Positions 54,719 to 55,870 of a stretch of DNA of 64,000 bases are shown in pieces (position 1 is the first letter of the stretch; each line of letters opens with the position of its first letter). A program made the translations under genes and the position numbers. The notes beneath the pieces are model-generated. The model was given only the letters and a program-made list of their open reading frames with translations. It was not told the origin of the DNA and ran no database searches. This DNA comes from Candidatus Heimdallarchaeum endolithica (GTDB lineage: Archaea > Asgardarchaeota > Heimdallarchaeia > Heimdallarchaeales > Heimdallarchaeaceae), in contig CP084167.1 of assembly GCA_021513715.1 (NCBI GenBank), forward strand, positions 2,240,001 to 2,304,000. Direction: 5' to 3'.

Positions 54719-55870
54719 TTATAACTCCTTTTTTCCTTTTTCAAAGAAGTAAAGTTTTCTTGGCTTAAAGCGGGTCCATTTCTCTTTAGTCAGAGGAACT
54801 GTCGCAATTATTACAGCTCTTTCATTTTCTGGTTTATCTAAAATGGAAATCCTAAGATCTCTATCTTTTGCTACTATCATTGATTGGTGAGGTGGCTTCC
54901 TTTCTACATAGTACAAACTATTATATCCTGAATGATAAGCAAAAAGCGAATCTCCATCAGATAACAAGAAATTCAATCCTCCGTATTCTGATAGTTTGTT
55001 AGCAATATCTTCAATTGTTGATATTTTTTTATTATTTGTGGCATTTCTTCCTATTTTTTTCAACTCTTCAAGTATTATACAGAAAGCCAATTCAGAATCT
55101 GTTTGACCATCAGGATAATATTTAGTTAATTCAAAATTCCTTTTTAGCATCATATAGTTTAGAGCACCATTATGCGCAAAAACCCAATTTTTATCAAAAA
55201 GTTGTTTTTGAAAAGGATGAGTATTTTCAACTTTTGATCTGCCATAAGATACTTTTTTACGTAAAAAACTAAATTTTTAGTTTGTGGAGTTATTAGACCA
55301 ATAACAACCTGAAACACATTTGTTTAAATAAAACATACAAAATATTTGGGAGTGTCACAACTTTTCAGCTATCTTTATATATTCAATTCTCATTTATCTA
55401 GTGTCTTGAGCTATATGCTTAAAGACGTAGGTTTCATTCCTACGACACCCGGTCTTCCCTTTGGGAGTTATGAGTTCCCGGGATAAGGAGATGAACCCCT
55501 TAGAGAACTTAATTGAGACTGTGTCTTTCATGTTCTCTTAAGCCAGTCTTCATAACTTTCGCTAAGTTTGTTGGTTGGTTGGGGAGAGTCCTGAAGAAAT
55601 TACGTAAAATTTCAACTCATGGATGGGGTTATGCTTGGTTAAATCCACAGGATAGAGAATGGAATATCGTTAAAGAACCGATAAAAGCTGAAAGTAGCAT
55701 TATAGCAGAACAACTAATTGAGAAAAAAGATGTTTTTAGGGGAACAATGTTTCTCTCTCACATTAGATTTGCGACACATGTGGATTGCTTCGTGAGTGTT
55801 TTCTGAAAATACTAAAAGAAAAAGAAATTTCTGTTGTAGGATAGCAAGATACACCTAGAAGTTCACACAT
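54719..55870 (-). pseudogene. class II glutamine amidotransferase (YafJ/EgtC-like), disrupted by an insertion and an internal inversion
   Basis: MCELLG...NPH (55870-55778, minus) + HGWG...SHIRFATH (55618-55780, plus) + GRSKVENTHPF...WVFAHNG...TDSE (55243-54719, minus) rejoin in frame to 258 aa. Confidence 0.9.
55246..55617 (+). mobile_element. non-coding CATG-inserted element with structured RNA-like interior
   Basis: CAT at 55243-45 and 55618-20; left end AAGATACTTTTTTACGTAA resembles the end at 14060; inverted TTTTACGTAA/TTACGTAAAA near both ends. Confidence 0.8.

Follow-up and report, generated by a model that had tools for sequence, protein, structure and literature searches.

A multi-copy transposon without a protein gene carries a TnpB-type guide-RNA scaffold and lies beside a 155-bp inversion in Candidatus Heimdallarchaeum endolithica

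The window analysed here is a 64,000-nucleotide stretch of the closed, 3.33-Mb genome of Candidatus Heimdallarchaeum endolithica (31% GC). It contains a class II glutamine amidotransferase gene that is broken by a short element and by an inversion of the gene's middle (Table 1). When the inversion is undone and the element is removed, the gene codes for a 258-aa GATase_4 protein identical at 256 of its 258 positions to the product of an intact allele, which is found among the same neighbours on metagenome contigs. No base was gained or lost at any of the three junctions of the locus. A second assembly, represented by a metagenome contig with its own SNPs (L025), has the same inverted state in the same orientation, an independent agreement that led us to reject assembly error as the source of the inversion. 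The 155-bp inversion is genuine. For this locus, the search for an ancestral contig, one in which the element is present and the flank uninverted, turned up only the intact allele. The sister species Ca. Heimdallarchaeum aukensis lacks, at the corresponding position beside a tRNA gene, the 2-kb region (window positions 53980-55950) that contains the amidotransferase gene and a 200-aa ORF.

Table 1. Features of the interrupted amidotransferase locus, its element and a related tnpB element, in window coordinates
Feature	Position	Strand	Remarks
Related tnpB element	14057-15849	+	End architecture matches that of the element; omegaRNA scaffold differs
3' part of broken amidotransferase gene	54719-55245	-	
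Element	55243-55620	+	375 bases; promoter box and TnpB-type guide-RNA scaffold, without a protein gene
Left junction and left end	55243-55270	+	CAT; AT core 55244-45 common to target; palindromic TTTTTTACGTAAAAAA; from empty-site comparison
AT-rich filler	55271-55373	+	Poorly conserved, without an ORF
Archaeal TATA-like box TTTATATA	55374-55381	+	27 nt upstream of first hairpin
First hairpin; probable RNA 5' end	55402-55426	+	Homologous to last tnpB codons, V-L-S-Q-W-L
Hairpin CGTAGG/CCTACG	55426-55444	+	From folding and homologue alignment
Nexus-like stem CCCGG/CCGGG	55448-55483	+	Encloses hairpin 55454-67 and pseudoknot 5' strand ATGAGT 55470-75
Conserved motif GGAGATGAACCC	55487-55498	+	Common to tnpB-linked RNAs
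Two more stem-loops	55502-55582	+	55502-38 and 55543-82
Conserved AGAGTCCTGA, right-end palindrome, terminal ACTCAT	55585-55620	+	Pseudoknot 3' strand; scaffold end
Inverted gene middle	55618-55780	+	Bounded by CATG 55618-21 and CATG 55777-80; 155 bp inside
Predicted guide (host DNA 3' of right end)	55621-55640	+	Predicted; length taken from known TnpB systems
5' part of broken class II glutamine amidotransferase gene	55777-55870	-	Start codon at 55870

The element begins at a CAT (55243-45) followed by AAGATACTTTTTTACGTAA, stops at 55620 with TTACGTAAAATTTCAACTCAT and measures 372 bp between its left and right CAT. Its GC content is 44% at 55425-55600 versus 26% at 55246-55424, and its longest open frame is 52 codons. 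The element is multi-copy and has spread recently: the genome holds 16 full copies with 86-97% identity as well as older diverged copies and fragments, and at least six copies are present in H. aukensis. Multiple copies, absence of an ORF, ends held in common with protein-coding elements and empty sites in relatives are the marks of a non-autonomous element of the MITE, PATE or ghost type. In the most diverged copies, identity is only 22-60% in the filler versus 72-98% at element positions 166-255. The spacing of the TATA-like box is identical in five of the seven other copies of this type that were checked and in all five ORF-less elements from sister genera. ORF-less deletion derivatives that have the ends of tnpB elements and a TATA box before the first hairpin occur in four other genomes (G002, G016, G017 and G026). 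Behind 23 left ends in relatives, we found no cargo besides tnpB or omegaRNA.

The 3' 220 nt of the element are homologous to tnpB-linked RNAs. The tnpB genes of sister genera, whose products are 43-45% identical to the resident TnpB family, are followed by TAATGAGTCCCGG, GGAGATGAACCC, GGTTGGG-AGAGTCCT and AACTCAT, which are the motifs of the element with their order kept. A scaffold profile built from 21 regions 3' of tnpB in other genera only had its best window match at 55466-55606 (36 bits, E = 1.2e-10; runner-up, 8 bits), and the reciprocal search with the element's scaffold returned ten tnpB loci at E<2e-5. An Rfam search of the element gave no meaningful match. RNAalifold paired ATGAGT (55470) with the terminal ACTCAT in a pseudoknot that covaries among families (ATGAGT/ACTCAT here, ATAAGT/ACTTAT in L043, ATGATT/AATCAT in the window tnpB family); a nexus pseudoknot has been described as general for omegaRNAs (bioRxiv 10.1101/2023.11.20.567912). 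Across 19 homologues, from which the structure was itself derived, 97.2% of cells were paired and five pairs were doubly changed (1/500 shuffles). Covariation among the element copies by themselves was modest, and folding of the single strand was no better than that of shuffles (z = -1.03); support for the structure comes from the 19 homologues. Within the element, the RNA region is conserved better than the 5' filler, and substitutions mostly preserve pairing. The scaffold ends at the element boundary and a variable guide follows: flanks differ after the invariant ACTCAT, giving each of the 16 copies its own guide, and the guide predicted here matches its own site only in the whole genome. 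Judged by these sequence features, the omegaRNA-type scaffold is real.

This outcome bears on the first-pass annotation of the window, which had placed an omegaRNA of a second subfamily at this position and had proposed asking whether its homologues accompany tnpB. In sister genera they sit immediately downstream of tnpB, and the window's own tnpB element has a different scaffold (cross-matches at E = 3.3 or none), in line with both parts of that proposal. The ends, the 372-bp length and the GC-richer interior that it described agree with our coordinates and GC values; its three hairpins are present (55426-55444, 55448-55483 with the inner 55454-67, and 55502-55538), and the resemblance it saw between the left end and the end at 14057 is genuine. 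Its omegaRNA reading is supported, although the RNA would start not at 55425 but some 20 nt earlier, at about 55400.

We found no tnpB bearing the element's scaffold in this genome or in that of H. aukensis, and no cognate tnpB upstream of partial copies, several of which are left-end deletions starting at an internal CATG. Going by sequence, the RNA may be used in trans by a resident TnpB or may be an orphan. In the TnpBs of this clade, Gly replaces the RuvC-II Glu and an alternative Glu is conserved, a pattern predicted to be active (RIIr type; PMC10691335). The tnpB gene of the window (14105-15589) is frameshifted in its N-terminal part relative to intact paralogues, and positions 27813-28081 hold a remnant omegaRNA and right end of the resident tnpB family without tnpB (E = 2e-41), in which the pseudoknot 5' strand is mutated. 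A second ORF-less family of 357 bp and about seven copies (L030, G000:2845702-2846058) has its 3' 157 nt in common with tnpB family 2 of the same genome; it ends with TGAT and inserts after TCAT. Six weak matches to the omegaRNA profile in G005 (L238, G005:C80) belong to another multi-copy element that ends with AACTCAT and has a diverged scaffold.

The ends of all CAT-type families in the genome are inverted repeats round CATG. At an empty site in H. aukensis (L008), the target reads GAT followed by A, and both the G on the left and the C on the right are supplied by the element, so only AT is common to the ends and the target. One family ends with GAT while inserting after CAT. By analogy, this 2-bp-core pattern is that of serine recombinases as in IS607, with AT replacing GG. 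In 12 of the 16 copies, the left CAT and the right CAT are followed by an identical base, as a 4-bp duplication would also give, and the tree of copies does not separate an inherited from a target-derived fourth base of the left end. The base preceding the left CAT is T in 2 of 34 cases for families ending with TCAT versus 9 of 10 for the family ending with TGAT (Fisher p = 7e-7 against a background of 34% T, from lists curated by eye that include some rearranged flanks). Such a bias would be expected from a TAM by which the filled site is spared. The ends also recombine inward: fragments begin at an internal CATG, truncated copies break at the one at about 55529, and one contig has the 3' half of the element inverted at an internal ATG.

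Rearrangements of adjacent DNA are common across the family. Compared with the sister genome, or with the intact allele for the window case, 5 of 18 assessable insertions have an adjacent inversion, namely 4 of 10 element copies (155, 326, 617 and 787 bp) and 1 of 8 tnpB elements (198 bp), at unrelated genes; one assessable copy has an adjacent 2.1-kb deletion instead. The inversion junctions that were checked lie at AT cores and are reciprocal, without a second element copy. For the 787-bp case (G000:1840192), contig L024 keeps the earlier state, with the element in place and its flank unflipped, from which it follows that an end can flip its own flank.

The search for a mobilising enzyme did not find one. 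No IS607 TnpA scored over the cut-off (NF033518) in the genome, nor was one found inside any element. The IS110 recombinase (PF02371) is absent from the genome and the RNA is tnpB-linked, which sets the element apart from IS110/IS1111 bridge-RNA elements. A Y1 mover was rejected as the single Y1 gene of the genome belongs to another element; this IS200/IS605 transposase gene itself has a copy of our element at its start (L070, G000:925509-925884). Tyrosine integrases and canonical Cas1 do not fit either, nor do the genome's multi-copy DDE families, whose ends are different. The window itself holds two inverted copies (16018-17036 and 47413-48422, about 91% identical) of a 42-copy IS5-like transposase family. 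The genome's two resolvase-family genes (L031, G000:316728-317582; L032, G000:405348-406154) encode short serine recombinases, each with a resolvase domain and a truncated recombinase domain but no N-terminal HTH. Both belong to the syntenic core of the family, being present in 28 of its 30 genomes, and are candidate movers by elimination only. Sister genera have true IS607 elements (L185-L190), which encode an unusually long TnpB-like protein of about 630 aa and have ends unrelated to those of the CAT family.

We propose, with a probability of roughly 0.7, that the element is a non-autonomous transposon born by internal deletion of a tnpB element and that the flank inversion is an accident of transposition. 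The deletion would have left the ends, the TATA box and the omegaRNA. Transcription would start at about 55400 and continue past the right end into the flank, which would supply the guide. A TnpB acting in trans would cleave the site left empty by excision and thereby favour retention. The TAM would be about VCAT rather than TCAT, the filled site being spared because its right end reads TCAT. A conservative recombinase, most likely of the serine type as in IS607, would excise and insert the element by exchange over the 2-bp AT core. If one end can pair with any nearby AT-core site, the enzyme would now and then invert or delete adjacent DNA, and the 155-bp inversion would be one such accident.

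The inversion had previously been interpreted as natural guide reprogramming. The strong form of this reading, a functional switch of the omegaRNA between two targets in one gene, we consider very unlikely indeed. As had been stated, each of the two candidate guides is preceded by CAT in the intact gene (TGCCAT followed by GTGTCGC and, on the opposite strand, CCACAT followed by GGATGGG); intact alleles cleavable by either guide occur in the environment, and the flip documented at G000:1840192 against L024 provides a precedent. Whether the guide was swapped at all is not established, as two histories yield identical DNA at this locus. Insertion at the first CATG with a right-end flip of the flank, which we favour slightly, would have changed the guide, but insertion at the second CATG in the opposite orientation, with a left-end flip of element and flank together, is only a little short of an even chance and would have left it unchanged. 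Target preference scores are about equal for the two, site 1 being good at -1 and poor at +2 and site 2 the reverse. Under either history, if the element were excised today, TGCCAT would stand directly before the present guide, which keeps the homing logic intact; guide and empty site are matched both ways, so nothing was functionally switched. Moreover, the orientation is identical in both assemblies that hold the site and no reversed one is on record, while the distal junction is a bare CATG without end sequence, an ordinary partner site given that CATG occurs once per 526 bp. As neither a paired site nor a second orientation is on record, the locus is not an invertible switch of the shufflon or phase-variation kind. 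Comparable flips of 198-787 bp struck unrelated genes, and all 16 copies already have their own guides. Reprogramming is unproven and at best incidental in a family in which accidental flank rearrangements are common: nothing points to its being reversible, and the genome yielded no cognate tnpB. The claim adds little, as a new guide comes with every insertion anyway.

Two further alternatives concern the mover and the RNA. A DDE- or Cas1-type transposase that duplicates CATN or else AT, in the manner of IS630-linked TnpBs or Fanzor Spu-1, with the inversions arising by aberrant transposition and repair, would account for the inverted-repeat ends, for the CATG flanking most copies and for the matching bases in 12 of 16; symmetric ends are known for DDE-linked TnpBs and a link to aCas1 for Asgard TnpBs (PMC10691335), and Thorarchaeota relatives bear a GTTCACTCA-like motif of the aCas1-linked Asgard group. 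We regard it as quite improbable, given that comparison with empty sites shows the bases flanking AT on either side to be the element's own, that one family ends with GAT yet inserts after CAT and terminal bases vary among families, and that the inversions leave clean, element-free reciprocal junctions. The ends of the genome's multi-copy DDE families also differ, and a giant gene that partners tnpB in Thorarchaeota, likewise rejected as a mover, occurs in none of 30 genomes of this family nor in this genome. The RNA, for its part, could be a dead relic that no host TnpB uses, its structure carried along as the ends are needed for transposition. That neither Heimdallarchaeum genome yielded a cognate tnpB, that the resident family's profile misses the scaffold and that single-strand folding is not significant all favour a relic, but the RNA interior, far from the ends, is conserved much better than the 5' filler, the TATA spacing is kept, substitutions mostly keep pairing, and the left-flank bias against T fits TAM selection; we consider a relic unlikely, if far from negligible. 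The preferred reading, an internally deleted transposon with an accidental flank inversion, could be widened: the Heimdallarchaeaceae TnpB transposon class might never encode a transposase and be moved by a chromosomal core enzyme, the two resolvase-family genes being candidates, whose relaxed one-end AT-core exchange would routinely flip or delete flanks and rewrite guides and TAMs in place. We regard this extension as speculative and rather improbable.

ORF-less omegaRNA elements are already known, as PATEs and Fanzor ghosts. The present family differs in its combination of ends that are inverted repeats, a 2-bp crossover core of AT, flanks that often flip and no identifiable mobilising enzyme. 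With an adjacent inversion at about a quarter of assessable insertions, these elements are a source of scrambled genes and offer direct access to the chemistry of their transposition; two TAMs, VCAT and TCAT, are predicted from the bias in flanking bases. The genome paper of H. endolithica counts transposase families and repeats and, in the part available to us, does not describe the element (PMC8813620); our literature search found no paper on this Heimdallarchaeaceae element family.

Among known systems, the PATE-like ORF-less IS200/IS605 elements (Meers et al., bioRxiv 10.1101/2023.03.14.532601) resemble the element in lacking a protein gene, keeping their ends, carrying an omegaRNA for use in trans and taking the guide from the 3' flank. 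However, the hairpin ends of PATEs are read on single strands by a Y1 (HUH) transposase, whereas our element has inverted repeats round an AT core and undergoes double-strand flank inversions, and the sole Y1 gene of the genome lies in another element. With the IS607 family (PMC6188088; bioRxiv 10.1101/2023.11.20.567912) it shares a 2-bp core common to ends and target without a true duplication, a TAM, here predicted, of which the core is part but which is unlike the right end, a pseudoknotted omegaRNA and a TnpB with RuvC-II Glu->Gly and an alternative Glu. The core of IS607 is GG rather than AT, its elements were reported to lack terminal inverted repeats (PMC6188088), which our element has, and a MerR-HTH serine TnpA of the IS607 type is missing from the genome; in relatives, the true IS607 elements differ from this family both at their ends and in their TnpB.

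The Cas1H-Asgard TnpB groups (PMC10691335) are a further point of comparison. That paper also mentions mobilisation of solo TnpBs in trans, and a group from Asgard archaea linked to aCas1. The homologues in Thorarchaeota share 36-40% identity with the TnpB of this clade and have a downstream TTCACTCA-type motif, which resembles the published one and is akin to the element's ACTCAT end. In Thorarchaeota and some Heimdallarchaeia, tnpB homologues (L109:1-3234, L107, L113, L120-L140) stand head-to-head with a gene for 1,500-1,700 aa and may be the aCas1-linked group of that publication. No Cas1 domain and no Pfam match were seen in the first 1,078 residues of this giant partner, which is absent from the family studied here. 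A complementary pair lies about 100 nt upstream and at the 3' end of Thorarchaeota tnpB (L112, L120, L123, L131 and L140) and covaries by eye (TGAGTGAAC/GTTCACTCA, TGAGTGAAAC/GTTTCACTCA and TGAGTGAGTT/AACTCACTCA).

The Fanzor1 ghost Spu-1 (Saito et al., PMC10432273) is, like our element, ORF-less, with inverted-repeat ends and a transposase-free interior. Its copies with a working omegaRNA outnumber the protein-coding ones, and its TAM is CATA (PMC10432273), which resembles the CAT junction of the element. Ghost Spu-1 is eukaryotic and has a 75-nt scaffold and a cognate nuclease in its genome, in contrast to a scaffold of about 220 nt and no such nuclease found here. TnpB elements with ends in inverted repeat, a palindromic AT core and no identifiable transposase are active in the archaea closest to eukaryotes and architecturally resemble Fanzor and ghost elements.
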